From the IMG/VR virus record IMGVR_UViG_2571042445_000002: a stretch of DNA of 64,000 nucleotides; one strand, written 5' to 3'. The position numbers and the translations under genes were made by a program. Within the stretch, counting starts at the first letter, position 1. Every line of letters starts with the position of its first letter. Origin of the DNA: a virus. Its lineage: Duplodnaviria; Heunggongvirae; Uroviricota; Caudoviricetes. Under the pieces are notes generated by a model. It was given only the letters and a program-made list of their open reading frames with translations, searched no databases and was not told the origin of the DNA. Shown here piece after piece: positions 2,410 through 58,708 of this stretch.

Positions 2410-3252
2410 ATGCAGAATAACTGGCTAAAAGAGCGTCTGACGCAATTTAAACAGGATTCTAAATTGTGGGCCGCCTTTGTTGATACGATTCAGGACGTGT
2501 GGAATGAATCGGTTGAACCTATTCTCACGCGAATAAGCAACCGTAAATCGTTTTTCACAATGGCAAGGGAGGATATGGACACTCGCATTGCTGAATATGG
2601 TCGTTTCTTTGTTATCACAGAAACGGACAAAACACGCAGGCCAATGCTATTAGCTCAACGACTGGATGAGGTGCACTTCAAAGGAACAGTAAGGCCGATA
2701 GAGCAAACGTTCTGGCGTGAATTTGGCACAATCCCCGTCTCATGGGAACCTTTGTATGCGCCTGTCGATACAGAAAAACATCCCTATGGTTCATTCTTCG
2801 CGACTGCAAATGAAATACCGACTGCTCAGGCACAATATGGTGAGTTTTTCCTGACATCCAGAGGGCTGGTTGTCGTCAACCAAAATAAGCTGTATCGAGC
2901 TTATGATAGCGATGACAGAGACGTTGCTGTACAGAAGCTACTTGCTGATTTTGATACGGTTATAGCGCCGCTATTGCCATTGCATATCGTGTTTGATGGT
3001 GTTTCTTTCCAGTTGAGCGCAACATTGCCGGAAATGGCGGAGATCCTGAATTGCTTATCTGCGGAAGTGTCCTTTATTGAGGGGGTGTACACGACGCAAG
3101 AGATGGTCGATGAACTATCTATTAGCGATACGATCATTCAATTAGACGGCATCCAGTTCGCAGGAAGGCCAGACCGGACGACGGAAAGAGTGCTTCATCT
3201 CGATGAACTCCCGCTCGACGCCTGGGCGCTGGATTATAATTTTGCACCTTAG
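2410..3252 (+). CDS. putative tail/baseplate protein
   Basis: 280 aa, follows baseplate J-like gene, followed by strong hairpin. Confidence 0.3.
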   Translation: MQNNWLKERLTQFKQDSKLWAAFVDTIQDVWNESVEPILTRISNRKSFFTMAREDMDTRIAEYGRFFVITETDKTRRPMLLAQRLDEVHFKGTVRPIEQTFWREFGTIPVSWEPLYAPVDTEKHPYGSFFATANEIPTAQAQYGEFFLTSRGLVVVNQNKLYRAYDSDDRDVAVQKLLADFDTVIAPLLPLHIVFDGVSFQLSATLPEMAEILNCLSAEVSFIEGVYTTQEMVDELSISDTIIQLDGIQFAGRPDRTTERVLHLDELPLDAWALDYNFAP

Positions 3253-3259
3253 CAAACCA

Positions 3260-3290
3260 GGCCCCACCAACCTGGGTGGGGCCATTTCTC
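3260..3290 (+). terminator. hairpin terminator candidate after baseplate genes
   Basis: 9-bp GC stem ggccccacc/ggtggggcc with 6-nt loop, then T-rich tract. Confidence 0.4.
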
Positions 3291-3308
3291 AAAACAAAAG
3301 ACCACTGG

Positions 3309-3324
3309 AAATCACAAACTGAAC
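3309..3324 (+). promoter_or_regulatory. candidate late-promoter element (AAATCACAAACTGAAC)
   Basis: one of four copies of a conserved 16-bp motif, 45 bp upstream of the tail-fibre operon start. Confidence 0.4.
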
Positions 3325-3368
3325 ATACTGCCCTTCGATTTATTGCTTGTTAAAGGGGCTATGTTCGT

Positions 3369-3815
3369 ATGGCTGAAACTTTAAAATCCCAAAGCGATTC
3401 AAGTATTTACAAGGCGCAACTCCTTTCTTACTACTACTCTCGCCGTGCAGAGTCTGCAATCGGCAGGGGTGAGCGTTTTGTTATGACAAAGGCTTATTGG
3501 TGCAAGTCCGATCTTGTGACGGTAAATAGTGCTGGTGGCTGGACTATTTCTGATATTCCGCTCGACTTCAAGTTAAGTGATGCACAGCATTTTGCTGAAT
3601 CCAATCTCATTCTTTCCAGCCTCGATGGTGTCATTACGATTAATGCCGCTTTTCCACAAGAAACGATGCCGGACGATACACCTTACGATTTCAATACGCT
3701 GGTTCTCGTAGATGCAGAGGATCAGGCTTTTGGGGTTGTTTGTACTCAACAGGACACCTTATTCAAAGGTAAGCGATACAGCTTGCTCATGACCATTGAA
3801 CAGGTCGAGGGATAA
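3369..3815 (+). CDS. tail-fibre operon protein (position equivalent to P1 R)
   Basis: 148 aa, immediately upstream of tail fibre gene. Confidence 0.3.
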   Translation: MAETLKSQSDSSIYKAQLLSYYYSRRAESAIGRGERFVMTKAYWCKSDLVTVNSAGGWTISDIPLDFKLSDAQHFAESNLILSSLDGVITINAAFPQETMPDDTPYDFNTLVLVDAEDQAFGVVCTQQDTLFKGKRYSLLMTIEQVEG

Positions 3816-3817
3816 TT

Positions 3818-6800
3818 ATGTGCGCAGATAAAGTAAAGAATATTGTCACCTTATCTTCGGACATTTCCGCTCCACTAATTGCAGACATGCAATACTTTGA
3901 GCTGTATAGCACCGAAGCTCTAAACAGGAAGATGAAAAATATCGTTCTGCCCGGAGTGTACTGTGGGTTTGAACCGGTGCCAGGGGATGGTCTGTTTGTG
4001 CGTATTACATCCGAGAAAACAGAGGGAAGAGGGGCGGCTTCAATTGACGTGGGTAAATGTCAGATATCCGTGCAGCAAGTCAGTGATGTTCTTGTTCCTG
4101 TAGAAGCTGGTGTAACGACAATCATCGTTCTTGAAGCTAATTACGAACATGGAGTGAAAACCAGCCAGGTAGATAGCTCATCGGATATTAGCGCAGCGAG
4201 AATTATTGCTCTCGTTGATGAGGAAATAGCATCTAACCAGATTGAGCTATGCCGCGTGATCGTGCCTGACAATGCTCAAGCCGTTACCGCAGATATGATT
4301 AGCACTGAATATCGTGCTAATCGTGCTGTTGGTGTTGAGTTTTCCAGTGCTTTGGATAGTGACGAAGAATATAAAGCCGCAACACCTCTTGCTATCAGCA
4401 CGTTAAACAAACTAAAAGCTCCGGTTGATAGCCCGGAGTTTATTGGTATACCTAAATCTCCAACTCCGGAACAAGGTACAAACAGTACACAAATCGCAAA
4501 CACTGCCTTTGTTCAGGCCGCAATAACCGCCCTTATTGATGGTTCTCCTTCGGCGTTGGATACGCTGAAAAAAATTGCAGATGCAATTAACAATGATCCT
4601 CAGTTTAGCCAGACGATTAATGCTGCTTTAGCTCTTAAAGCACCGTTATTAAGCCCGGCATTTACAGGGGTGCCAACAGCGCCTACAGCGTCACAAGGTA
4701 CGAACAACACTCAGATTGCAACAACCGCTTATGTTCGTGCCGCTATTTCTGCATTGGTCGGCTCATCACCAGAAGCTCTTGATACTCTTAATGAGCTTGC
4801 TGCGGCGCTGGGCAATGACCCGAACTTTGCGGCTACAATGACAAATGCCCTGGCAGGTAAGCAGCCTCTCGACGCAACCTTAACCGCGCTCGCTGACCTG
4901 GCGACGGGGGCAAATAAATTACCGTACTTTACCGGAACAGACACTGTAGCCCAGACTGATTTAACGTCAGTCGGTCGCGATATTCTTGCTAAAACAAGCA
5001 CACTGGCTGTTATCCAATACCTTGGTTTAAGAGAACTCGGAACCAGCGGAGAAAAGCTCCCCCTGTTGAGCACAGCTAATACCTGGAGTGCACGCCAGAC
5101 TTTCAGCGCGGGGATCACTGGTACGCTGACCGGGAACGCCGATACTGCGACGAAATTAAAAACAGCCAGAAAGATTAACGGTGTGGCATTTGATGGGTCG
5201 GCAGATATTACTCTGACCCCTGAAGATCTTGGCTTAACGGATATTGCTTCTCAAGCTGGTAACGCAGTTCAGCGTTCTGGCGACACAATGGGGGGGCAGC
5301 TAAAAATTGGCACAATAAATGCCCTTCGAATATTTAACCAGGACTTTGGCCTTATCTTCAGGAGATCCGAGGAATATCTTCATCTTATCCCGACAAATGA
5401 AGGGGAGGGTGAAAATGGTGACATCGGGCCATTAAGACCATTTTCTATAAACTTAAGAACTGGGTTGGTGTCCATCGGTAACGGCGTAAAAGTTGGCGGT
5501 GGTATTACTGGTAATTTGACGGGAAACGCAGATACTGCCACAAAGCTCAAGATAGCTCGAACGATCGGCGGAGTGTCATTTGATGGCAGCGCCAATATCG
5601 ACCTGCCTGGCGTGAATAAAACAGGTAATCAGAGCACTACCGGCAATGCTGCAACCGCAACGAAACTTCAGACGGCACGCACAATCGGCGGAGTGTCATT
5701 TGATGGCAGCGCCAATATCGACCTGCCTGGCGTGAATAAAACAGGTAATCAGAGCACTACCGGCAATGCTGCAACCGCAACGAAACTTCAGACGGCACGC
5801 ACAATCGGCGGAGTGTCATTTGATGGCAGCGCCAATATCGACCTGCCTGGCGTGAATAAAACGGGTAATCAGAGCACTACCGGCAATGCTGCAACCGCAA
5901 CGAAACTTCAGACGGCAAGAACAATCGGCGGGGTGGCATTTGATGGCACTGCCAATATCAACCTGCCGGGTGTGAACATTGCTGGTAACCAGAACACAAC
6001 AGGTAATGCTGCAACCGCTACAAAACTGCAAACAGCCCGCACAATCAACGGTGTTAAGTTTGATGGTTCTGCGAACATTTCGATACCAACAATTACGTCC
6101 AGAGGGCGTGTTACTGCGCTCACCAGTACAACGCAAGGTGCTACTACTGGATTGCAGATGTATGAGGCGTACAACAACGGCTATCCTTCTGCTTACGGGA
6201 ATGTGCTTCATCTTAAGGGCGCAACTGCCGCTGGTGAAGGCGAGTTGTTCATAGGTTGGAGCGGCACAAGTGGTGCTCATGCGCCTGTACATGTACGTTC
6301 GCGACGAGATACTGATACAGCCAGTTGGTCTGAGTGGGCGCAGGTCTACACATCGAAGGATTCCATCCCTGGTGTAAATACAACAGGCAACCAGAACACA
6401 ACCGGAAACGCGGCGTCTGCAACGAAATTACAAACGGCAAGAACTATTGGTGGTGTTTCATTTAATGGCACCGCAAACATCGACCTGCCGGGCGTGAATA
6501 AAACAGGTAATCAGAGCACTACCGGCAATGCTGCAACTGCAACGAAACTACAAACAGCGCGCACAATAGGCGGGGTTTCGTTTGATGGTACAGCAAACAT
6601 CAATCTTCCGGGCGTTAATATTGCCGGAAATCAAAATACAAGTGGTAATGCAGCTACAGCGACAAAGTTAAAAACTGCCAGAAAAATAAGTGGAGTGGCT
6701 TTTGATGGTTCTGCAGACATCACATTAACGGCAAGTCATGTTGGTGCGTTACCAACAACAGGTGGTACTGTTACCGGTGAAATTATATCCAGCAGCCAAA

Positions 6801-17111: not shown

Positions 17112-17128
17112 TTAATTTTCTAACACAG
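17112..17128. promoter_or_regulatory. operator-like motif TTAATTTTCTAACA
   Basis: member of the dispersed 14-bp motif family. Confidence 0.5.
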
Positions 17129-47375: not shown

Positions 47376-50300
47376 ATGACTCATCAAACACACACCATTG
47401 CTGAATCCAATAACTTTATCGTTCTTGATAAATACATCAAAGCTGAGCAAACAGGCGACAGCTATCAGAGCGAATCGGACCTGGAACGTGAACTGATTCA
47501 GGACCTGCAAAATCAGGGCTATGAATTTATATCCGTAAAATCACAGTCAGCGATGCTGGCCAACGTTCGGGAACAGCTTCAGAGCCTCAATGGTGTGATG
47601 TTTAATGACAGAGAGTGGCGGCGTTTCACGGAGCAGTATCTGGACAACCCGAGCGATGGCATTCTGGATAAGACCCGTAAAATCCATATCGACTATATTT
47701 GCGACTTTATTTTTGATGACGGGCGTCTTGAAAATATCTATCTGATAGATAAAAAGAATCTCATGCGCAATAAGGTGCAGATTATCCAGCAGTTTGAACA
47801 GACGGGTTCTCATGCTAACCGTTATGACGTCACGATCCTGGTTAATGGTTTACCGCTGGTGCAAATCGAACTAAAAAAACGCGGGGTGGCGATTCGTGAG
47901 GCTTTCAACCAGATACATCGTTACAGTAAAGAGAGTTTTAACAGCGAAAATTCCCTGTTTAAGTATCTGCAACTGTTTGTCATTTCTAACGGCACCGATA
48001 CCCGTTACTTTGCCAACACCACAAAGCGCGATAAAAACAGTTTTGACTTCACAATGAACTGGGCGAAATCAGACAACACGCTGATTAAAGACCTCAAAGA
48101 CTTTACCGCTACCTTTTTCCAGAAACATACTCTGCTGAATGTTCTGGTGAACTACAGCGTTTTTGACAGTAGTCAGACGCTACTGGTGATGCGACCGTAC
48201 CAGATTGCAGCTACCGAACGAATTTTATGGAAAATCAACAGTTCCTATAAAGCGAAAAACTGGTCCACTCCCGAAAGTGGTGGCTTTATCTGGCACACCA
48301 CCGGTTCCGGTAAAACACTGACCAGCTTTAAAGCCGCGCGTCTGGCAACAGAACTGGACTTTATTGATAAAGTCTTCTTCGTGGTCGACAGAAAAGACCT
48401 CGATTACCAGACGATGAAGGAATATCAGCGTTTTTCGCCAGACAGCGTCAACGGCTCGGAAAATACCGCAGGACTTAAACGAAATCTGGATAAGGACGAT
48501 AACAAAATTATCGTCACCACTATTCAGAAACTTAATAACCTGATGAAAGCAGAAAGCGACCTGCCTGTATACAATCAGCAAGTGGTGTTTATATTTGATG
48601 AATGTCACCGCAGCCAGTTTGGAGAAGCACAGAAAAACCTGAAGAAGAAATTCAAACGCTATTATCAGTTTGGTTTTACCGGCACACCTATTTTCCCGGA
48701 AAACGCCTTAGGCTCAGAAACAACCGCCAGCGTATTTGGCCGTGAATTGCATTCATATGTTATTACCGATGCGATTCGTGACGAAAAAGTGCTCAAATTC
48801 AAGGTGGACTACAACGATGTGCGGCCACAGTTTAAGTCTTTAGAGACAGAAACTGACGAGAAAAAACTGAGTGCGGCTGAAAATCAGCAGGCGTTTCTTC
48901 ATCCCATGCGTATTCAGGAAATCACGCAATATATCCTGAACAACTTCCGCCAGAAAACCCACCGTACTTTCCCTGGTTCCAAAGGTTTTAATGCCATGCT
49001 GGCAGTAAGCAGCGTGGATGCTGCAAAAGCCTATTATGCGACGTTTAAACGGTTACAAGAGGAAGCCGCTAATAAATCGGCTACCTATAAACCGCTGCGT
49101 ATTGCGACAATCTTCTCCTTTGCCGCCAATGAAGAACAAAATGCCATTGGTGAAATTTCCGATGAAACTTTTGATACCAGCGCAATGGACAGCAGTGCTA
49201 AAGAGTTTCTGGACGCTGCAATTCGTGAATATAACAGCCATTTTAAAACTAACTTTAGCACCGACAGTAACGGTTTTCAGAACTACTATCGTGATTTAGC
49301 CCAGCGGGTTAAAAATCAGGATATCGATCTGCTAATTGTCGTGGGGATGTTCTTAACCGGCTTCGATGCTCCAACATTGAACACGCTATTCGTCGATAAA
49401 AACTTACGTTATCACGGCCTGATGCAGGCATTTTCCCGCACTAACCGCATTTATGACGCCACTAAAACCTTCGGTAATATCGTCACTTTCCGGGATCTGG
49501 AACGCTCAACTATTGATGCCATAACGCTGTTTGGTGACAAAAACACCAAAAATGTGGTGTTAGAAAAGAGTTATACAGAGTATATGGAAGGCTTTACTGA
49601 TGCTGCTACAGGTGAAGCTAAACGCGGCTTCATGACAGTAGTTTCAGAACTGGAACAACGGTTCCCTGACCCTACCAGTATTGAAAGTGAAAAAGAGAAG
49701 AAAGACTTCGTTAAACTGTTTGGCGAATACCTGCGTGCCGAGAACATCCTGCAAAACTATGATGAATTTGCCACGCTAAAAGCCCTGCAACAAATCGATC
49801 TTAGCGATCCTGTTGCGGTAGAAAAATTCAAAGCAGAACATTATGTGGATGATGAAAAGTTCGCTGAATTGCAAACAATTCGTCTCCCTGCTGATCGCAA
49901 GATTCAGGATTATCGTTCTGCCTATAACGATATTCGCGACTGGCAGCGCCGTGAGAAAGAAGCTGAGAAAAAAGAGAAATCAACCACTGACTGGGATGAC
50001 GTAGTTTTTGAGGTCGATTTGCTGAAGTCTCAGGAAATAAACCTGGATTATATCCTTGGACTGATTTTCGAACACAACAGACAAAATAAAGGCAAGGGCG
50101 AAATGATCGAAGAGGTCAAACGCTTAATTCGTTCAAGTCTAGGGAACCGTGCTAAAGAGGGCCTGGTGGTCGATTTTATTCAGCAAACGAACCTGGATGA
50201 TTTACCGGACAAAGCCAGCATCATTGACGCATTCTTTACGTTTGCTCAACGCGAACAGAAACGTGAAGCAGAAGCATTGATAAAAGAAGAAAATCTCAAT

Positions 50301-50492
50301 GAAGAGGCGGCGAAACGCTATATTCGCACATCTTTAAAACGCGAATACGCCACCGAAAATGGTACAGGATTAAATGATACATTACCAAAACTTAGTCCGT
50401 TAAATCCGCAATATAAAACGAAAAAACAGACGGTTTTCCAGAAAATCGTCTCGTTTATTGAGAAGTTTAAAGGCGTAGGCGGAAAAATATAG
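47376..50492 (+). CDS. hsdR: Type I restriction-modification endonuclease subunit
   Basis: 1038 aa; Walker [15 protein letters not shown]-box [12 protein letters not shown]2 helicase layout. Confidence 0.85.
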
Positions 50493-50523
50493 CCCAATTC
50501 GTGTTTTTCTTGCGGGTTCTTAA

Positions 50524-50907
50524 TTAAACCCGCAAGAGATCGTGGGATTCTAAATAGCTAATATACTCCCCTTCCCCATCCGAGATAACACCTTCGTAAT
50601 ACTCGCGCTGCTCGTTGAGTCTGGATTTTGCAGCTTCCAGTTGTTTTGTTAGCTCTGCAATACGGCAAACATCGTTGATACGCCTTTCCTCTAATGCGTT
50701 GTTCTCATTCAGTAGTGCCAAAGCAACCTTTGGATTAAAGGCAGCAATAAATTCAGCGTTGTTTTTCAGAACGTGTTGCGCAATGGCCTGACTACTTAGT
50801 CGGACCTCATAACCACGTGCGCCACGGTGTGGTTTATATGAGTCCCAGTCTCCCCACGTTGCTTTCACTGCCGCCTCACGCAGTACCTGATAGTCAATCT
50901 TGCTCAC
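50524..50907 (-). CDS. Ead/Ea22-like prophage early protein (paralogue family)
   Basis: 127 aa; N-terminal 65 aa near-identical to the gene at 55782-56273; GTG start after GGAGGCAACCA. Confidence 0.4.
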   Translation of the reverse strand: MSKIDYQVLREAAVKATWGDWDSYKPHRGARGYEVRLSSQAIAQHVLKNNAEFIAAFNPKVALALLNENNALEERRINDVCRIAELTKQLEAAKSRLNEQREYYEGVISDGEGEYISYLESHDLLRV

Positions 50908-51352
50908 TGGTTGCCTCCTTATTAATCAGTTTATACAGGTGCACCACAGTCACAGAGAGTGCATCCATCGCTCGTTTATCCAGGCGCGGGGCCAGAGCAA
51001 CCAGTTCATTTATTGCAATCTGAATACGCTGCTCCGCCGCCAGCGTCGCGCGATTGCTCTCCAGTTCTGCAATTCGGCACATGGCATCAATATTTGTGTC
51101 TTCCAGGCGCTTAATTTCGCCCAGGAGTGCCAGCGCAACTTTTGGTGGGATAGCCGCGATATAACGGGCATTAGCACCAGCATTCCTTTGCCCATCAATG
51201 CCAGGCCAGTCAATAAAGTATCCGCAATGCCTACCCTCAGACGTGCGCGCAGGATAAATGCCGTTATGACCCGGCAAAATATATGCTACCCATTCATCTT
51301 GCGTTGCCTGTTCCGCCGCCTCGCGCAGTTCTTGATAGTTAATTTTGCTCAC
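50894..51352 (-). CDS. Ead/Ea22-like prophage early protein (paralogue family)
   Basis: 152 aa; MSKINYQELREAAE N-terminus related to neighbours. Confidence 0.4.
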   Translation of the reverse strand: MSKINYQELREAAEQATQDEWVAYILPGHNGIYPARTSEGRHCGYFIDWPGIDGQRNAGANARYIAAIPPKVALALLGEIKRLEDTNIDAMCRIAELESNRATLAAEQRIQIAINELVALAPRLDKRAMDALSVTVVHLYKLINKEATSEQD

Positions 51353-51605
51353 TGGTTGCCTCCGCTTCCCACGTTTTCAGACTTTCACCACAGAACGGGC
51401 AAAATGAAACTCGAATAGGCGATTTAGAAAATTCACCAGACCGCAGCATGATCAGGTCTTGTGAATTAATTAATGCATGGTTATAAATTCTGTATTTCAG
51501 AAGCCCTTTTCGCGTCGTGTATTCAGCGTCATACTCCAGCGATTGTGCCAAAGCCGCGCACGGTTCTATCTTGTTGCCATTAATTTGGCATTTTGACTCA
51601 CTCAC
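51339..51605 (-). CDS. hypothetical protein with C-terminal Cys motif
   Basis: 88 aa, CPFCG motif; same conserved initiation region. Confidence 0.3.
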   Translation of the reverse strand: MSESKCQINGNKIEPCAALAQSLEYDAEYTTRKGLLKYRIYNHALINSQDLIMLRSGEFSKSPIRVSFCPFCGESLKTWEAEATSEQN

Positions 51606-52188
51606 TGGTTGCCCCCTGAATACGCTTAAACTCGATTACCCATACCCACGGGTTAGATAGCCAGTTATCCTGCCCGTAAATACTGCGCCAGATATCACCA
51701 AAACCAACGCGATAAACAGCTTCAGGTGGCGTAATCTTGTACGTCGCCGGAGTTGCGCCTTCTGCTTTAGCATCTGCCTCGCTCATGTCATGCAGCCGTT
51801 CCACACGCACGTCGGTAATTTCCAGAAGAATGCGCGATGCCCAGCGCGGCATGTGAATTGATGGCGTCCACTTTTCTGATACTGGTTTATTACAAACATC
51901 GACCGGAACCCGGTGCGTTTGTTCTGTCCAGGAGTTACGCACGCTTGCGCGATAAACCAGCGTTGCGACGTCCGTCGCTTTGCCATGTACCCGGTAGGTT
52001 TCGCGAACCCAAATACGATCGCCCGGTTGACCATATGGACAATGCTTGGCAAGCAACTCTGCGGCAACTGCTCGTCCATAGAATTTTTCTTCAACAATCC
52101 TGCGAGTCTGTGTTTTATTCCCGCCAAGAATTGCCCGGACCATCTCATCGTTAAAAATCATCCCGCGTTCTTTCATTTTTTGATCCAC
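51598..52188 (-). CDS. ASCH-like domain prophage protein (putative)
   Basis: 196 aa; N-terminal MIFNDEMVRAILGGNKTQTRR...GDRIWVRE resembles ASCH/PUA-like domains. Confidence 0.35.
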   Translation of the reverse strand: MDQKMKERGMIFNDEMVRAILGGNKTQTRRIVEEKFYGRAVAAELLAKHCPYGQPGDRIWVRETYRVHGKATDVATLVYRASVRNSWTEQTHRVPVDVCNKPVSEKWTPSIHMPRWASRILLEITDVRVERLHDMSEADAKAEGATPATYKITPPEAVYRVGFGDIWRSIYGQDNWLSNPWVWVIEFKRIQGATSE

Positions 52189-52192
52189 TCCA

Positions 52193-53188
52193 TCAGTTAT
52201 TGAACGTGATCACTCCGCGCTCGATGGCGAAGTCGAAAAGCTGGTTGGCGGCTACGTAAAGGCGTATGCCATGTGCTTTTTCCCATGCCCGGACATCGTT
52301 TTCTGCGCTTCTGGCGCATTCATCGCAAAGAGGAACGGCCCAGCGATCGTGTTCGTTTAACGAGCGGGCGCGGTACATGAACGGGTGATTAACTTTGCCT
52401 CCGCATCCGATGCACGGACGAGAAATCACAAACCGGAGATAAGCCGGGCTTTTACCGAGAACCGCTTTTGGTCGGCGCATATACAGCAGGCCGGAATCCT
52501 CATCTACAGACAGGTTGACGATCTGCTCTGCGGTTATGTCCACCAGCTCACGGGTGCTGTGCTCCCAGGTGATATCCGATTCTTTCAGTGTGCCGGTAGG
52601 GATTTCCTGTTTTGGCTGACAAAATGCAATGCGACCGGCTTCATCTGGCAGCTCGTCTTTCAGATTCCGGCGAATGGCCCAAAAAGTGAGTTCAACCATG
52701 CTCAGATCGCGTTCTGGCGGTAGTTTTAACTCGCTCGCAGCCCAGTTCATAACCCAGTTGGCACGATTCAGGGATAACTGGTCGTCCAGCTTGCTGTACC
52801 CCTTCATCATGTATTCCGCATCATGCTTCCAGCACAGGCGAACGGCAGAGCCGTTATAGAAATGAGTGGTTAGCTGGTGGCTGCAATCGCGCTTATCGTG
52901 CGCCTGGCAATCGTGGATATTGGAACTTACCCAATGAACAAGCGAATCTTCACCGCCTAATGCGTTAAATACGCGCTCGCTTTGAAAAAATGCTTTCAGA
53001 GACTGGTTGGCAACCAGCGAATAGTTCAGATCCACTACGCCATCTGGCGTGTTTTCAGCCTGTTCGCGCGGAAGTGGAGAGATAATGAAACGGCGACCTG
53101 CGCCAATGTAGTTGCTGGTGGGCTTGTCTACCGGAAAGACAGCCACACCAGCTCCGTTTACGAAATGAGGTGTGATTATTGCACTCAT
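52193..53188 (-). CDS. DUF968-like Cys-rich prophage protein (putative)
   Basis: 331 aa; paired Cys motifs CIGCGG...CDECA near the C-terminus. Confidence 0.35.
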   Translation of the reverse strand: MSAIITPHFVNGAGVAVFPVDKPTSNYIGAGRRFIISPLPREQAENTPDGVVDLNYSLVANQSLKAFFQSERVFNALGGEDSLVHWVSSNIHDCQAHDKRDCSHQLTTHFYNGSAVRLCWKHDAEYMMKGYSKLDDQLSLNRANWVMNWAASELKLPPERDLSMVELTFWAIRRNLKDELPDEAGRIAFCQPKQEIPTGTLKESDITWEHSTRELVDITAEQIVNLSVDEDSGLLYMRRPKAVLGKSPAYLRFVISRPCIGCGGKVNHPFMYRARSLNEHDRWAVPLCDECARSAENDVRAWEKAHGIRLYVAANQLFDFAIERGVITFNN

Positions 53189-53230
53189 AATGTATACCGA
53201 CTCTGTTTTGTTCCGAGCGGTAAAATAATC

Positions 53231-53263
53231 TGTTAGAAAATTAAAATCAATATTCTAATATCA
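53231..53263. promoter_or_regulatory. operator-like inverted pair
   Basis: TGTTAGAAAATTAAAA and TATTCTAATATCA upstream of the minus-strand DUF968 gene. Confidence 0.5.
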
Positions 53264-53292
53264 TTTTGAGTGCATAAACGATGTGTTCAGGA

Positions 53293-54009
53293 TTACGACT
53301 GCCCTCCCTTCACCTGCTTTAGCGTCAGATTTCCGCAAAAAACCGCACCAGTGTCTATGTAGTGCTGGTTCCAGAAAGATTTCGGGCTGCTTACTGGCGT
53401 ATGCCCGAAAATAAAGCTATCTGCACCAGTGATCATTCCACCAACACCATCAACCGCGTCATAAAATCGCTCACGCCGCCAGGTAACATTGAGATCGCTA
53501 ACAGGTTTACCAAACTGGTATTCGTTATCAGGATAGTCGGCATGGGCTATAACGATAGTTTCATGCCCGGTGTTCAACTCAATGATATAGGGCAAACGTC
53601 TTACCAGCTCCACCAGCGCCCTGGCTAATATTTCCCGATCAGCGTCCAGCATGAAGAACCATTGACCACCATTCATTAGCCAGTTATTCACGTTGCCTGC
53701 GGGACTTAACGCATCGATCATTAATCGCTCGTGGTTTCCCATAACCGACCGAAACCAGGGCATCTGCAATAGCTCCAGGCATTCAACATTTTCGGTGCCG
53801 CGATCGATAAGGTCGCCAACCGATATCAGTAAATCCTGTGTCGGGTCAAAGTCCACACGATGAAGTTCAGACATCAATCTGGTGTAGCAACCATGCAGAT
53901 CACCAACAACCCATATGTTTCTGTAGCCTGAACCATCAATACGGGTATATAAATTCACTTCATGCAGCGCCTGGGTCATGCGGCAACCTTCTCCCGCAGC
54001 CAGATACAA
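53293..54009 (-). CDS. Ser/Thr protein phosphatase (PPP-family metallophosphatase)
   Basis: 238 aa; motifs [20 protein letters not shown]. Confidence 0.7.
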
Positions 54010-54287
54010 ACCGGGCCATCTTCAGTGTCATGAATAGAGCCAACAAACCATCCTTCGCCCTCTGGTCGCTCTGGTTCCCAGGCGGCAATATCGGGACCAT
54101 CTGCGTCCAGATTAAAATGATCTTCATCCATACTGCGAATAGTCCACTGAAGATTATTTTCCTTCATCCAGGCGTCAAATTCCTCAGTGGATATATATTC
54201 ACGACCTGCGCAAAACTTTTCATACTCCGGATGTGTCCAGCAGCCATATTCATCACGTTCTACCGGCATTTCTTTAATGATGCTCAC
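53976..54287 (-). CDS. hypothetical protein
   Basis: 103-aa acidic ORF. Confidence 0.3.
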
Positions 54288-54508
54288 TCTTCATCCTCCA
54301 AGTCGGCAACGGCCTCCATCACATCAGAACCGCGAATAACCTCAAAAGCACGGCAGGCCATTTCAAACACCTGTTGTTCTTGCGGATGCGGTGACTCCCA
54401 ATACTTAAAACCAGGTCGATGCTCGTAACCCAACATGGAATAAAAATCGCCAGCAAGTTCAATCGCGGCATCAACAAGTTCGCGATTTGTCATCGTCTGT
54501 TCTGTCAT
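54284..54508 (-). CDS. hypothetical protein
   Basis: 74-aa acidic ORF, coupled. Confidence 0.3.
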   Translation of the reverse strand: MTEQTMTNRELVDAAIELAGDFYSMLGYEHRPGFKYWESPHPQEQQVFEMACRAFEVIRGSDVMEAVADLEDEE

Positions 54509-54780
54509 TTTGTTTTCTCCTGTCTGAACATCACTATCATCAGGTCGCCTTTTGTCGCTATCCTGGCTGTTGTACCTGGTTCAATGCGGCTAAGCTCAAA
54601 TGCGTCATAGAACGCTTCTAATGCCTTCTGGCGTAGTTCCTGTTTGCGCCGTTTTTTCCACTGTTTCAGGAAAATGGAACCCAGCCAACGCCATGTACGG
54701 GACATGATGTAAAGCCAACCGAGAAGTGCCAGACCGGTATTTAGGAGCGTATCGATCGTTATTGTCGTGTCGATATTCAC
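54505..54780 (-). CDS. small membrane protein
   Basis: 91 aa, N-terminal TM helix then basic region. Confidence 0.3.
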   Translation of the reverse strand: MNIDTTITIDTLLNTGLALLGWLYIMSRTWRWLGSIFLKQWKKRRKQELRQKALEAFYDAFELSRIEPGTTARIATKGDLMIVMFRQEKTK

Positions 54781-55460
54781 TGGCTGCCTCCTTTGCGAAG
54801 CTGTTCAGCAATACTTACGCATATCTCTGCGCCTCTAATCAGCCCCGGAACGTTCTTGTTTGGCCCAACTTCACCATCGACAAAATCAATCATCGCGTTA
54901 CGAGCCATATCCACGCCCTGCGCACGTACTTCAGCCAGGAAAGCATCGGTGGCTGGCGTTTCCCGTGAACGGTAAGACCAAACAATGTCGTCTGTTTCAC
55001 TGGGTTCTTCATGAGAGCAATTTGGGCAGACAGCAGTACAACCAGCATGATCTTCTATGAGCATCTTCAGCCACGAGTTCTCCTCCGCCAGCGTCACGCG
55101 ACTGGCCTCCAGTTCTGCTACGCGCTGTTTTGCAGCATCCAGTTCAATCGACAATTTTTCCAACTGCTCTTTATGCTTTTTATATTCCTGATATGCGTGC
55201 CAAGACTGACCTTTGCGCACACTATCCGTGATATCAGTAATCTGTTCTGGTGTTAGCGTGGTCAGTGGCTGTGCTGGGAAAATCAGCACTTTCCCGGCAT
55301 CCCAATCAAAACCCACCTGAATTGACTGAACCTCAACTGATGGTGTTGAACCGATGCGACCAGGCGAATGAACAACGATCGTTACATCCATATCGCGACG
55401 ATGGCTGTGGTTGTTGGACAAAATACGATTCACCAACTCCGAGAATTTGGAAAATTTCAT
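54777..55460 (-). CDS. Ea22-like coiled-coil protein
   Basis: start at internal Met (MKFSKFSEL) overlapping upstream stop (ATGA); C-terminal half aligns with the paralogue at 56270-56944. Confidence 0.4.
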
Positions 55461-55813
55461 GCTGATTCCCTTTGCTCTTCCTGGATAATGTTGTTGCAAT
55501 CTTTCACGCACTCGTTGCAGATGAAAACGTTGTCCCCGGCAATTAACTTTTTAACGGTGTGCTGGGATTTGTTGCAGAAGCTGCAATAAAGCGTTGGACT
55601 GGCTGATACGGATGGTGCGCCAGATGTCAGCCGCGCGATGTCGTTCTTGCGACGCAATATCACACGGCTGCACTCGACCAGCATCTCCGGGGATATATCC
55701 TCCTCCGTGGCGAGCGCCTCCAGACGTTCGAGCAAGCGAAATACTTTTTCCTGGGTGATTGCAGAATGCGATGTGGTCATCTCACTCTCCTTTGAGGCGA
55801 ATGCCTGTTGCAA
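55457..55813 (-). CDS. small protein with C-terminal ClpX-type zinc-binding domain
   Basis: 118 aa; [39 protein letters not shown] closely matches the ClpX N-terminal C4 zinc-binding domain as I recall it. Confidence 0.55.
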
Positions 55814-56273
55814 TGCTGTTTATGATGCTGTCAGTGCATGGGGTAGAAAGCTGGGCATCTCCAGCAATTTTCATGACCTCAACATCTGCATATCGAATAC
55901 CGAGGTGTATCAGACCGGCTATGCCTGACTTAAGCCGAGCATTTTCCATAAATAGAACCTTTGCCCGCTGTTTTTCTGCTTCAAGCTCAACACGCAGTTT
56001 CCCTACCGTAAGCGCAATATCCTCGTTCTCCTGGTCGCGGCGTTTTATGTATTGCTGGTTTCTTTCCCGTTCATCCAGTAGTGCCAAAGCAACCTTTGGA
56101 TTAAAGGCAGCAATAAATTCAGCGTTGTTTTTCAGAACGTGTTGCGCAATGGCCTGACTACTTAGTCGGACCTCATAACCACGTGTGCCACGGTGTGGTT
56201 TATATGAGTCCCAGTCTCCCCACGTTGCTTTTTCTGCCGCTTCACGCAGTGCCTGATAGTCAATCTTGCTCAC
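55782..56273 (-). CDS. Ead/Ea22-like prophage early protein (paralogue family)
   Basis: 163 aa; 5' about 200 nt near-identical to 50700-50907. Confidence 0.4.
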
Positions 56274-56944
56274 TGGTTGCCTCCTTTGCGAAGCTGGGCA
56301 GCGAACCTATCAGCTGCATCCGCGCAAGCAGAAGCAACGGAATCAAAAAATGGATCATCTCCTGTATCGCGCATCGTCAAAGCGAATGCCTCCACCCCTT
56401 GTGCCTGTATTTCTACAAGGGATGCCTTAGATGTAGTGCTTTTCGCCTCGCCTAATTCGTTATGAGCGATGTTCGCTATACATGCGATGTCTATATCTGG
56501 ATGATTAATTGGGCAATGGCTAAGAATTGCCTCAAGTGCTGCTTTTTTGCTTTGGCATTCCGCCACCAGCGCCCCGCAATTGCTTTCCAGCTCTGCAATA
56601 CACTTTTTAGCGGCCTCCAGCTCAACACGCAGATTCTCAAGCGTTAGAGCCTTCTCCACGTTCTCGTCCAGCAGTTCAATCACATCAGGATCGCTACCAT
56701 CAACTACTGATATGCGCGAATTTTTGTAATGCTCGTCAGCATAAGTTCGTCCAGTTTTGAAGCATCCGTCATCCTCCATGCCGGAACAGGCATAAACAAC
56801 ATGTGATCCAGATATGCGCTGCATTGACATTTCCTCGCCACAAACAGGGCATTTAGGCGCTGGTTTCGGTGAATAACGTTCACGTAACGGATAGTAAAGC
56901 TCGATCTCCGCCAGTTGCTCTGGCGTTAAACCTTCAGACTTCAT
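56270..56944 (-). CDS. Ea22-like coiled-coil protein
   Basis: 224 aa; C-terminus ends with the same AEQLRKGG(S/N)Q motif as the 54777 gene. Confidence 0.4.
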   Translation of the reverse strand: MKSEGLTPEQLAEIELYYPLRERYSPKPAPKCPVCGEEMSMQRISGSHVVYACSGMEDDGCFKTGRTYADEHYKNSRISVVDGSDPDVIELLDENVEKALTLENLRVELEAAKKCIAELESNCGALVAECQSKKAALEAILSHCPINHPDIDIACIANIAHNELGEAKSTTSKASLVEIQAQGVEAFALTMRDTGDDPFFDSVASACADAADRFAAQLRKGGNQ

Positions 56945-57251
56945 GTACTCTCCTTTCGAAATAAACGTACTGATTAATCATTCCCAGGGGCATTTCGAGT
57001 TTTTCTGCGATCTCACGGCGGGGAACACCACACTGATGAAGCTGCCGCGCCAGTTCTATATCGCTCTGCCGGTATTTGGCTGACTGGTGAAAGTCTCCTT
57101 TCAGAATCATGCTGATCCGCAGTTGCCGCGCTTTAGTCCTGACAGCACCACCGGTACGCCCGATCAGTCTCCCAATACCCTCGACTGTCATAGTCCCGGC
57201 GCACTGGCGGAGTATCATGATTTCTGCCCTTCCCCATCCCCGCCAGCTCAC
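56934..57251 (-). CDS. HTH-containing small regulatory protein (putative)
   Basis: 105 aa with HTH-like segment GVPRREIAEKLEMP. Confidence 0.3.
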   Translation of the reverse strand: MSWRGWGRAEIMILRQCAGTMTVEGIGRLIGRTGGAVRTKARQLRISMILKGDFHQSAKYRQSDIELARQLHQCGVPRREIAEKLEMPLGMINQYVYFERRVHEV

Positions 57252-57886
57252 GCAGAACTCCTTCTAACCAAAAGAACGCCATCTTCAGAAACAATGTTGC
57301 AGGACTTCAGGTAATTCATTGCCACTTTCGGTAATGGATTCTTTGGATCGGCGTTTGCCAGGGATTTCGATAACCTCAAGATAAATTTGATCATTACCTT
57401 CTGACGGAGCTTGTGCTCATGAGATGCAGACAGGTAATAGGAAATGGTATGGGCTAAACGCTCACGAAGCTGTTCTGTGCCGTGATATACAGCAGCGATA
57501 TCACGCAGTGCATTGACCAGTTCCCGGTAAATATGCGGAGCAACCTGGCATTCAATGTTGGTTGGTGACTCATAAATTACATTCAGCCCCAGCTTTTGAG
57601 CCAGCTCGTGCTCTGCACGAGCGCCAACTGATTCCTCCCACCCCTTGAGCAAATAGACCGCATTAGCCGAACGCAACATTGCAAGGCAAATATCCATGTA
57701 TTCACTCTGGCAGAGGCCAGCAGGTAACAGCGCCGGATTCAGAACAATATGCCCTACCTCCATCAGCTCTTTTGCTTTCGAAAAAAACGCTGTGCGGTTG
57801 TAGTCGGGATAACCAGTCATCGGACCCGCGATGTAAATTTTCATAATGCGTTTTGACATCAAAGTTTCCCCAGGAACGTTACGCAA
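57248..57886 (-). CDS. DUF4406-like (nucleoside deoxyribosyltransferase-fold) protein
   Basis: 212 aa; N-terminal YIAGPMTG...VLNP...LKGWEESVGARAEHE matches the DUF4406 pattern. Confidence 0.4.
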   Translation of the reverse strand: MRNVPGETLMSKRIMKIYIAGPMTGYPDYNRTAFFSKAKELMEVGHIVLNPALLPAGLCQSEYMDICLAMLRSANAVYLLKGWEESVGARAEHELAQKLGLNVIYESPTNIECQVAPHIYRELVNALRDIAAVYHGTEQLRERLAHTISYYLSASHEHKLRQKVMIKFILRLSKSLANADPKNPLPKVAMNYLKSCNIVSEDGVLLVRRSSA

Positions 57887-58053
57887 AAGTTGATGAGAGC
57901 AAAGAGTTCAATGCCCAGCTCAAACAACGCCAGGACAGTGAAAAACAGGGCATATAGCAACCCAATTTCTGTACCGGATTGCTGGTGGATTGCACTTATT
58001 GCGACAAGCATCATGACCTCCTGATATAGCGTCTGAAAAAAAAGTATCTTCAT
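57859..58053 (-). CDS. small membrane protein
   Basis: 64 aa, two hydrophobic helices. Confidence 0.25.
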   Translation of the reverse strand: MKILFFQTLYQEVMMLVAISAIHQQSGTEIGLLYALFFTVLALFELGIELFALINFCVTFLGKL

Positions 58054-58055
58054 TT

Positions 58056-58089
58056 TGTGTTAGAAAATCAATTTTGATTTTCTAACACA
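58056..58089. promoter_or_regulatory. perfect palindromic operator
   Basis: TGTGTTAGAAAATCAATTTTGATTTTCTAACACA between divergent genes. Confidence 0.6.
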
Positions 58090-58132
58090 TTTGATCAACC
58101 ATAGCGGCGATGTAGACAAACCGGGTATTTCT

Positions 58133-58708
58133 ATGAAGCAAAGCTATTGGGAGAAACAGACACAAAAAGCCCTGCAAAAACTGGCTGATCCGAAATGGCG
58201 GGAGGAACAAAGGGCAAAGCGTCTTCAGCAAGCTCAACGCCAGCAGCAGCGTGCGCGAGAAAAAGCCGCATCGCCTGAATATCGGCAAAAGAAAATTGAA
58301 AAAGCGAAGCAATATGAACAGCGAAGAAAAGAGAAGGCCGCTTCTGCTCCTGTCAAAAAAACTCGCGCGTCACGCGGCCTGAAAGGCAGAACACTCACAG
58401 CAGATGAGCGCCGGATACAAACTGCCATCGGTGCTCTCCCCTGCATTGCCTGCCATATGCACGGACAGCATAGCCCTGTGGTATCCCTGCACCACATCTT
58501 CGGGAGAACAGCAGAGAACGCGCATAAATACGTCCTCCCTTTGTGTAAATGGCACCATCAACACGCAGCGCCAGCAGAGATCCGCGAGCAATACCCCTGG
58601 TTGGTTCCTGTTCATGCTGATGGAAAAATAGGCGGCAAAGCAGATTTCAGGCGGCACAATGCTGATGAAATGACGTTGTATCAGATGGTGACTGAATTAA
58701 TAAATTAA
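58133..58708 (+). CDS. HNH-type nuclease, Ref-like (putative)
   Basis: basic Q/R/K-rich N-terminus then Cys/His core LPCIACHMHG...LHHIFGR...CKWHHQH; ATG at 58133 chosen because the upstream TTG abuts the operator. Confidence 0.4.
   Translation: MKQSYWEKQTQKALQKLADPKWREEQRAKRLQQAQRQQQRAREKAASPEYRQKKIEKAKQYEQRRKEKAASAPVKKTRASRGLKGRTLTADERRIQTAIGALPCIACHMHGQHSPVVSLHHIFGRTAENAHKYVLPLCKWHHQHAAPAEIREQYPWLVPVHADGKIGGKADFRRHNADEMTLYQMVTELIN

Follow-up and report, generated by a model that had tools for sequence, protein, structure and literature searches.

Conserved translation-start linkers and probable cassette exchange in an Ea22-like gene array of a D6-like phage-plasmid

The Ea22 proteins of phage lambda and of Stx phages have a three-part layout and a mosaic organisation, lambda Ea22 favours lysogeny, and the published Stx variants carry unrelated C-terminal domains (CTDs) (PMC10834534). 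A model of lambdoid mosaicism in which modules meet at "short conserved boundary (linker) sequences" goes back, in the account given by PMC3029335, to Susskind & Botstein 1978 and to Clark et al. 2001 on HK620, and according to the same source such linkers are not findable at most phage mosaic joints. In addition, frequent gene flow between phage-plasmids and phages has been documented (PMC10879196). Both Ea22 mosaicism and the boundary-sequence model of recombination are thus already published. Here we describe an array of five Ea22-like genes at positions 50524-56944 of the IMG/VR record IMGVR_UViG_2571042445_000002, a stretch of 64,000 nucleotides (nt) that is referred to as the window throughout. 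With a probability that we put at roughly 0.75, recombination at conserved linkers, which at the same time hold the translation start, exchanges the Ea22-like cassettes and their modules. Beyond what was known, the array provides a quantified behaviour of such linkers, their use in three reading frames, a double role as translation signal and homology patch, a natural recombinant, and a cassette pool that is common to integrative and plasmid prophages.

The likeness to the lambda Ea22/Ead family (PF13935; P22 eaD, HK620 hkaG and the Stx variants) consists of family matches, near-identical blocks and a common layout, and in Stx phages the neighbouring genes, for DUF4752 and a small zinc-finger protein, are the same as here. 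What differs is that five copies stand in one operon instead of one or two, and that the replicon is a D6/P1-type phage-plasmid instead of an integrated lambdoid phage. The lambda Ea22 C-domain has moreover been described as mixed alpha/beta, whereas the C-domain predicted for the 224-amino-acid (aa) protein of the array is all-helical. Searches of the PDB with three of the proteins gave no homology to the solved lambda Ea22 CTD, and only the last seven residues of the 163-aa protein (GIRLKGE) resemble lambda; such a mismatch is expected, because the published Stx variants have unrelated CTDs as well. In the Stx1/Stx2-converting phages NC_004913 and AP004402, which have a different replicon and fewer cassettes, the same gene pool (DUF4752, Ea22-like/DUF551) bears repeat units that the depositors labelled "arrangement c/d/e/f, region II". 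In NC_004913 (positions 3100-3949), these units read "arrangement cfe / c / e / f; region II" over DUF4752 and Ea22-like genes, so that the variability was already noticed about twenty years ago.

Phage D6 and other members of P1 group 2 have the same backbone order (DUF4406 ... DUF4752 ... ppp ... pdcB-like) beside the gene ref. D6 carries two ead/Ea22-like genes at equivalent places, and the cassette content differs in almost every one of these relatives; where the left end of the array abuts a type I restriction module in the window, D6 has pmgU-side genes. The paper on a D6 variant does not deal with this part of the genome. The likeness to the boundary-sequence model, as described in PMC3029335, is that non-homologous modules meet at a short conserved sequence, which recurs both in one genome and in others and has crossovers inside it. 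Here, however, the linker lies inside coding sequence, serves as ribosome-binding site and start, and is common to integrative lambdoid phages and plasmid prophages. As judged from the sequences, the array shows what that model describes: a repeated sequence at the joints, more reassortment there than elsewhere, and a natural recombinant.

Shared sequences at the gene junctions and 5' ends

The five genes all lie on the minus strand and encode, from gene 1 to gene 5, proteins of 224 aa (56270-56944), 163 aa (55782-56273), 227 aa (54777-55460; the open reading frame (ORF) extends to 55511 and then encodes 244 aa), 152 aa (50894-51352) and 127 aa (50524-50907). At their junctions we found a 16-mer, GGAGGCAACCAGTGAG, which with up to two mismatches allowed was present five times in the window, each time on the minus strand and each time between two genes. 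Shuffled sequence would give 0.37 copies, and none of 100 shuffles reached five. Three copies are exact (50903-50918, 51348-51363 and 56269-56284), one has a single mismatch (GGGGGCAACCAGTGAG, 51601-51616) and one has two (GGAGGCAGCCAGTGAA, 54776-54791). The 16-mer, which we call the type-1 linker, consists of the Shine-Dalgarno (SD) sequence GGAGG, the 6-nt spacer CAACCA and a GTG start followed by AG. Extended to the 19-mer GGAGGCAACCAGTGAGCAA, it shows no difference between the starts of three genes, at 50907, 51352 and 56273. These were the three gene starts at which the initial annotation had seen a recurring initiation region, and the diverged copies that it placed at 51605 and 54780 are the two with one (51601) and two (54776) mismatches.

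The linker lies within the last codons of the gene upstream of it, and the position of the upstream stop codon varies. It is found inside the GTGA at 56269-56284, where the upstream gene ends in KGGNQ, and at 54776-54791, where an Ea22-like gene ending in KGGSQ is joined to the DUF4752 gene (general form RKGG(N/S)Q). It comes 4 nt later (EATSE form) at 51601-51616, where an upstream 196-aa gene reads GATSE, and 10 nt later (EATSEQ(N/D)) at the two remaining copies; the 88-aa gene upstream of 51348-51363 ends in EATSEQN, and the 152-aa gene upstream of 50903-50918 ends in EATSEQD. Unrelated upstream genes, of the Ea22 type, of phrog_4030, of phrog_874 and others, therefore read the linker in three frames, and at least eight unrelated gene types follow it. 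Because of these three upstream frames and the unrelated downstream genes, the linker must be conserved as DNA and not as protein. The joints have the architecture of coupled junctions, with an SD sequence and a start that overlaps or abuts the upstream stop, and translation of neighbouring genes may well be coupled in fact. At the gene starts 57251 (GGAGttctgcGTGAGC) and 54287 (GGAGGatgaagaGTGAGC), the same grammar was seen with other spacers, and GTG-AGC (Met-Ser) starts are unusually frequent in the operon as a whole.

A second linker, ATTCGCCTCAAAGGAGAGTGAGATG (type 2), is located at 55778-55802 on the minus strand, between the 163-aa gene and a ClpX-zinc-finger gene; the upstream gene ends in IRLKGE with the SD sequence inside its last codons, and the ATG of the next gene follows. 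This linker (AAAGGAGAGTGAgATG) has the general form ATTCGC(A/C)TCAAAGGAGAGTGA(G/T)ATG, encoding IR(I/L)KGE and a stop before the ATG. In 87 of the 207 loci examined it was found in 89 copies, before at least 15 different downstream genes.

Both linkers are widespread. Among the first 120 IMG/VR matches listed, all 130 exact copies of the 16-mer stood in the same context, and many of the contigs were of lambdoid prophage size. A 70-nt patch around the junction was matched by 475 phage records; Stx1/Stx2-converting, mEp, HK and Salmonella P22-like phages are among them. In HK620, the type-1 linker is located at the hkaH/hkaG junction and the type-2 linker at hkaG/hkaF. The lambda ea22 gene itself has the GTG-AGC start, with upstream sequence that is different from the linker.

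Apart from the linkers, self-comparison of the window revealed a direct repeat of 216 nt, with copies on the minus strand at 50705-50920 (A) and 56071-56286 (B), which is 97.2% identical (6 mismatches, BLAST E=1.5e-102) and comprises the linker and the N-module up to a PKVALALL box. A near-identity of about 200 bp at 50700-50907 and 56065-56273 had been claimed before; it is real, with coordinates that were some 5-13 nt off, and together with the five 16-mers (0.37 expected) it demonstrates repeats well beyond chance. Shorter patches of 62 nt, 84-85% identical, link the 5' ends of the genes starting at 50907, 51352 and 56273, and weaker coiled-coil patches were seen at 51032-51070, 55080-55118 and 56558-56596. 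The WGDW-type N-module carried by the long repeat was found at 95-98% identity in eight other loci, with at least five different upstream flanks and two different downstream continuations; in this alignment (A1), homology starts at the linker and ends after ALALL. The two copies within the window are 97.2% identical to each other, as compared with 98.1% to the copy in locus L177, and a sister plasmid keeps the same six differences between its two copies. Among the loci examined, only the window and this sister plasmid have the N-module twice. Since the module is 95-98% identical elsewhere in other contexts and the six differences are retained in the sister plasmid, the sequences argue against recent intragenomic conversion: on this comparison, a single N-module that circulates widely has been placed twice, before two different coiled-coil/C-terminal parts, and so accounts for the 97%-identical 5' ends.

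Reassortment among relatives and a natural recombinant

The relatives used for comparison were 80 IMG/VR loci around the phosphatase gene, which contained 117 copies of the type-1 linker on the operon strand. After clustering of the 150 nt on each side of the linker, 18 upstream and 15 downstream sequence classes were obtained that occurred in 41 combinations, and 9 of the 18 upstream classes had at least two different downstream partners. The probability of meeting the same downstream class given the same upstream class was 0.39 at linker junctions, versus 0.94 at 1,528 further gene starts in these loci, a contrast that is somewhat inflated since the latter include core genes, which are conserved, and a number of spurious ORFs. 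Among the proteins, 92 combinations of 36 N-module with 43 C-module classes were seen, which is an upper estimate in which over-long ORFs pull in DUF4406 and ClpX-zinc-finger proteins. Fifteen different arrangements of the first variable block (V1, see below) were present among 24 D6-like loci, and only 3 of 1,336 matching plasmids covered at least 80% of the locus. The expectation that the locus would vary across its relatives was thus borne out.

We next consider where homology between the window and the 80 loci breaks off. Of 450 internal homology ends, 21% fell within 20 nt of the five linker copies, which make up 3.8% of the region. This corresponds to a 5.6-fold enrichment (13 of 61 distinct 10-nt bins, binomial p=4e-7). 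Some gene junction or other lay within 20 nt of 43% of the ends. Further clusters of break points were observed at intragenic boxes, namely at 56080, which is the end of the PKVALALL box and the inner end of the 216-nt repeat, at 55960-70 and 55060-70, which are the starts of coiled coils, and also at 50570-80.

A captured crossover was found in plasmid NZ_CP122510, in which the 224-aa gene is followed directly by the DUF4752 gene. To the left of this junction the plasmid is identical to the end of the 224-aa gene of the window, and to the right it is identical to the start of the DUF4752 gene. The corresponding BLAST segments, window 53949-54809 (99.4% identical) and 56270-57988, overlap in the plasmid by exactly a 33-nt repeat, which in the window is present on the minus strand at 54777-54809 and, 91% identical, at 56270-56302. 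Because the segments overlap by exactly this repeat, the crossover must have occurred inside the linker patch. Relative to the window, the plasmid differs by a scar-free 1,493-bp insertion or deletion that comprises the 163-aa, ClpX-zinc-finger and 227-aa genes. Comparison of the sequences establishes both the location of this crossover and the reassortment of classes at the linkers; together with alignment A1, they support the initial suggestion of cassette shuffling by homologous recombination.

The Ea22-like proteins, their operon and its candidate operators

All five genes matched phrog_368, and four passed the Pfam threshold for PF13935 (Ead/Ea22; cut-off 27 bits), in agreement with the Ea22/Ead-like identity that they had been given from the start: 67.5 bits for the 127-aa protein, 69.6 for the 152-aa, 114.3 for the 163-aa and 41.2 for the 224-aa protein. 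The 244-aa ORF had no Pfam match; it was recognised by phrog_368 (E=2e-59) and by BLASTP to the 224-aa protein (E=8e-9). The proposed sharing of N- or C-terminal modules also proved correct. An N-terminal module is common to the 127-, 152- and 163-aa proteins (71%, 47% and 40% identity), and a coiled-coil plus C-terminal module is common to the 224- and 244-aa ORFs (30% over 141 aa, E=8e-9).

The 224-aa protein (phrog_368 E=2e-49) has a Cys-rich N-domain (CPVC...C), a long coiled coil and a helical C-terminal domain, and many of its 739 relatives match just part of it at 85-95% identity. Its AlphaFold (AF2) model (mean predicted local distance difference test score, pLDDT, 64; predicted template-modelling score, pTM, 0.26) shows a small Cys-rich beta N-domain, a 57-residue helix at 86-142 (pLDDT 74-84) and a helical C-domain at 153-220. 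According to this model, backed by the alignment to lambda Ea22, the predicted protein has the three-part architecture of variable N-part, coiled coil and C-domain. The 163-aa protein has a WGDW-type Ead N-module and a lambda-Ea22-type coiled coil and ends in GIRLKGE; with lambda Ea22 it has in common the start, an identical 34-residue coiled-coil block and this C-end, and its allele is very common in E. coli chromosomes and plasmids. In the third protein, a phrog_6026 N-domain precedes a coiled coil and a C-domain. Its start is most likely the ATG at 55460 (227 aa, MKFSKF...), because the RefSeq coordinates of a near-identical plasmid (L001) and the phrog_6026 alignment both point there. The 152-aa protein combines a QDEW-type Ead N-module with a coiled coil, and its tail (KEATSEQD) reads through the next linker. 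Finally, the 127-aa protein consists of a WGDW N-module and part of a lambda-Ea22-like coiled coil, with AKSRLNEQREYYEGVISDG in common with lambda Ea22. It is probably a 3'-truncated copy, because its homologue in locus L006 has 229 aa, homology ends at 50576 and the last 17 or so codons belong to the flank of the hsd module. Sixteen loci have a break point at 50570-50589, in this flank.

Several observations concern the left end of the array. An Ea22-like gene appears to have lost its 3' half to the hsd module, whose type I hsdR gene (1,038 aa, window 47376-50580) converges on the operon and whose edge lies at about 50576-50580. A hairpin at 50509-50536 overlaps the stop codon of the 127-aa gene.

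By analogy with lambda Ea22, the proteins probably form oligomers in which the coiled coil acts as a scaffold and the variable end domains are offered to partners from host or phage. Searches of the PDB by sequence with the 224-, 163- and 244-aa proteins gave no significant match, just coiled-coil noise. A reading of the genes as a defence system found no support: PADLOC and NCBIfam returned nothing meaningful, and the matches to LmuB and chorismate mutase were sub-threshold coiled-coil matches. In the IMG/VR loci L010-L027, the first gene after the DNA-binding gene encodes proteins (class "N4") that begin like the 224-aa protein (MKSEGLTP.QLAE) and continue like a ClpX-zinc-finger N-terminus (ITQEKAFHILERLE...). 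This suggests that modules pass between Ea22-like cassettes and others, or else that the ORFs were called too long.

Its sequence identifies the 64-kb window as an E. coli phage-plasmid that is D6-like (P1 group 2). Among plasmids, NZ_CP085065 matches best, with 98.6% identity over 93% of the locus, and phage D6 is 92% identical over 61% of it; P1, P7 and SJ46 have only the backbone genes ppp and pdcB-like in common with the locus. About 15 tightly packed minus-strand genes are located between 50524 and 57886, and the Ea22-like array would be the accessory part of an early operon that runs leftward on the minus strand from about 58050 to about 50520. This operon is divergent from ref (58091-58708), which adjoins it and encodes a nuclease of the Ref family (RecA-dependent recombination-enhancement nucleases), and at its left end it meets the convergent hsdR gene. 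The conserved backbone has the order DUF4406, DNA-binding gene, V1, DUF4752, two small genes, phosphatase, DUF968, V2. In sequence terms, V1 and V2 are two variable blocks embedded in this backbone that contain interchangeable cassettes from the lambdoid exo-xis/"ea" gene pool. As to the earlier description of the locus as a lambdoid-type early region, the gene pool is indeed lambdoid, of the exo-xis/"ea" type, whereas the replicon belongs to the phage-plasmids of D6/P1 type. The location is not that of the lambdoid PL operon, between the recombination genes and xis/int, since this is a plasmid prophage whose operon diverges from ref and contains ppp and the pdcB-like gene; gene pool and linkers alone are shared.

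On the minus strand, the genes for the DNA-binding (105 aa) and DUF4406 proteins (56934-57886) form the conserved 5' part of the operon, the DUF4752 gene (54505-54780) is the conserved anchor downstream of V1, and the DUF968 (pdcB-like) and Ser/Thr phosphatase (ppp-like) genes (52193-53979) are the conserved P1/D6 backbone between the two variable blocks. Cassettes from outside the family are the 88-aa (phrog_4030) and 196-aa (phrog_874) genes (51339-52188), which are flanked by type-1 linkers, and, within the array, the gene of 107 aa for a ClpX-C4 zinc finger (55457-55780), assigned by PF06689 and by the RefSeq coordinates in L001. In the 196-aa gene, a segment of about 450 bp (51656-52102) is replaced relative to the otherwise 98%-identical NZ_CP085065, and only a 95-nt piece of it matches, at 87%. 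The mosaic patch here lies within a gene that does not belong to the Ea22 family.

A scan for the sigma-70 consensus gave no convincing promoter for the operon. Between ref and the operon start, at 58058-58087, there is a perfect inverted pair of the 14-mer TTGATTTTCTAACA, a candidate repressor operator. The dispersed 14-mer (TT(A/G)ATTTTCTAACA) has 15 copies in the window versus 0.8 expected, with 12 of the 15 outside any ORF of at least 150 aa, and the sites are located at 17112, 18319, 29929, 31174/31190, 31324, 34839, 39281, 40678, 53231, 58058/58074, 58705 and 62173. Two of these are inverted pairs (31174/31190 and 58058/58074); the site at 53231 lies within the operon, upstream of the DUF968 gene. 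In P1, the C1 operators are dispersed over the genome. The 14-mers look like a candidate operator set of a C1-type repressor of the element, their distribution resembling that of the P1 operators. Because its promoter region holds an inverted pair of a 14-mer that is dispersed in this manner, the operon is probably repressed in the plasmid prophage and expressed early.

Origin of the joints and what they mean

The mechanism that we consider likely would operate as follows. As its sequence makes evident, the linker places the ribosome-binding site and the start codon for one gene within the final codons of the gene before it, and together with its immediate flanks (CAGCTTCGCAAA upstream, AGCAAGATTGACTATCAGGCACTGCGTGA downstream) it would offer 16-60 nt of homology. 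General or phage-encoded recombination would then cross over in this homology, between co-resident lambdoid prophages and phage-plasmids or between copies within one genome, and whole genes would be added, removed or replaced with their translation signals preserved. The intragenic boxes (PKVALALL, which closes the N-module, and the place where the coiled coil begins) may serve the exchange of N- and C-modules in the same way.

Several points weigh against this picture. Besides the inflation of the 0.94 control mentioned above, break points are also found at junctions without a linker, for instance at both ends of the phosphatase gene (52-53 loci each), and since mosaic boundaries occur at such linker-free junctions, the linker is not required for exchange. 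Recombination between the two copies of the 216-nt repeat would predict a 5.4-kb deletion, which was not found in 336 matching plasmids (PLSDB); intragenomic recombination between the long repeats must therefore be either rare or selected against. The recombination mechanism is read from comparative patterns, and RecA, an enzyme of the Red/RecET/Erf type or a Ref-stimulated process may be at work. The linker could also be conserved in part because selection favours an optimal site of initiation. Finally, protein function is assigned by analogy to lambda Ea22, with an AF2 model of low-to-moderate confidence (pLDDT 64).

The last but one of these points, taken to its limit, would make the junction a translation signal and nothing else, kept or reached independently by selection, with mosaic joints formed by illegitimate recombination plus selection for intact genes and with no role for homology. 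The motif is indeed a textbook SD-N6-start with a GTGA overlap, the junctions at 57251 and 54287 follow the same grammar with different spacers, break points cluster at linker-free junctions too, and illegitimate recombination is favoured for most phage mosaic joints (PMC3029335). However, translation does not require a fixed spacer or a fixed codon behind the start, yet both CAACCA and that first codon are retained at junctions with unrelated flanking genes. The linkage of flanks is also much lower at linker junctions than at other tightly packed junctions, and the NZ_CP122510 crossover lies without a scar inside a 33-nt patch of 91% identity. Signal and homology are moreover compatible roles, so that this alternative competes only as the sole explanation, and as such we regard it as unlikely.

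Still less credence can be given to tandem duplication in place followed by divergence, with the near-identical 5' ends kept alike by gene conversion within the plasmid (concerted evolution). One would then expect two N-module copies at 97% identity in a single genome, as found, and a doubling confined to the window and its sister plasmid among the loci examined. However, each gene is far more similar to relatives elsewhere than to the rest of the array: more than 120 protein clusters from chromosomes and plasmids contain the 163-aa allele at 95-99% identity, and other plasmids have the 224-aa gene at 95%, versus 26-47% between members of the array outside the common module. The N-module is 95-98% identical in eight other loci with different contexts. 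A signal of homogenisation was absent, the paralogue (97.2%) being no closer than the L177 copy (98.1%) and the six differences persisting in the sister plasmid, and N-module paralogues appear not to cluster by genome. We therefore hold this explanation to be highly improbable. A dedicated site-specific or nuclease-targeted cassette exchange of the integron or shufflon kind, with the linker as its recognition site, would account for one short sequence at many junctions across replicon types, and a gene for a Ref-family RecA-dependent nuclease does adjoin the operon. Yet the arrays have no recombinase or integrase gene as a constant companion, the linker is built neither as an inverted repeat nor as a core site, intragenic boxes and linker-free junctions are places of exchange as well, and the lambdoid phages with the linker lack ref, all of which leaves such a system with hardly any likelihood. 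Exchange by recombination at linkers that double as translation starts thus remains the explanation that we prefer.

A broader proposal would be that the linkers are working parts of a cassette-exchange system common to lambdoid prophages and P1/D6 phage-plasmids, by which co-resident elements could rapidly re-assort a library of coiled-coil "adaptors" (for example counter-defence or host-takeover factors), possibly stimulated by Ref. Any crossover from linker to linker would then yield an expressed gene, since the SD sequence and start codon of every cassette sit in the tail of the preceding gene. The proposal is speculative, and we think it rather improbable; if true, the system would be functionally like an integron without an integrase. 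On the role of Ea22-like proteins the array adds nothing yet. Its significance lies in a debate on the origin of mosaic joints that dates from 1978, with homologous recombination at short linkers on one side and illegitimate recombination followed by selection on the other. For this question, the Ea22-like array represents a clear and quantifiable linker case, and it could be used to measure linker-dependent exchange experimentally.

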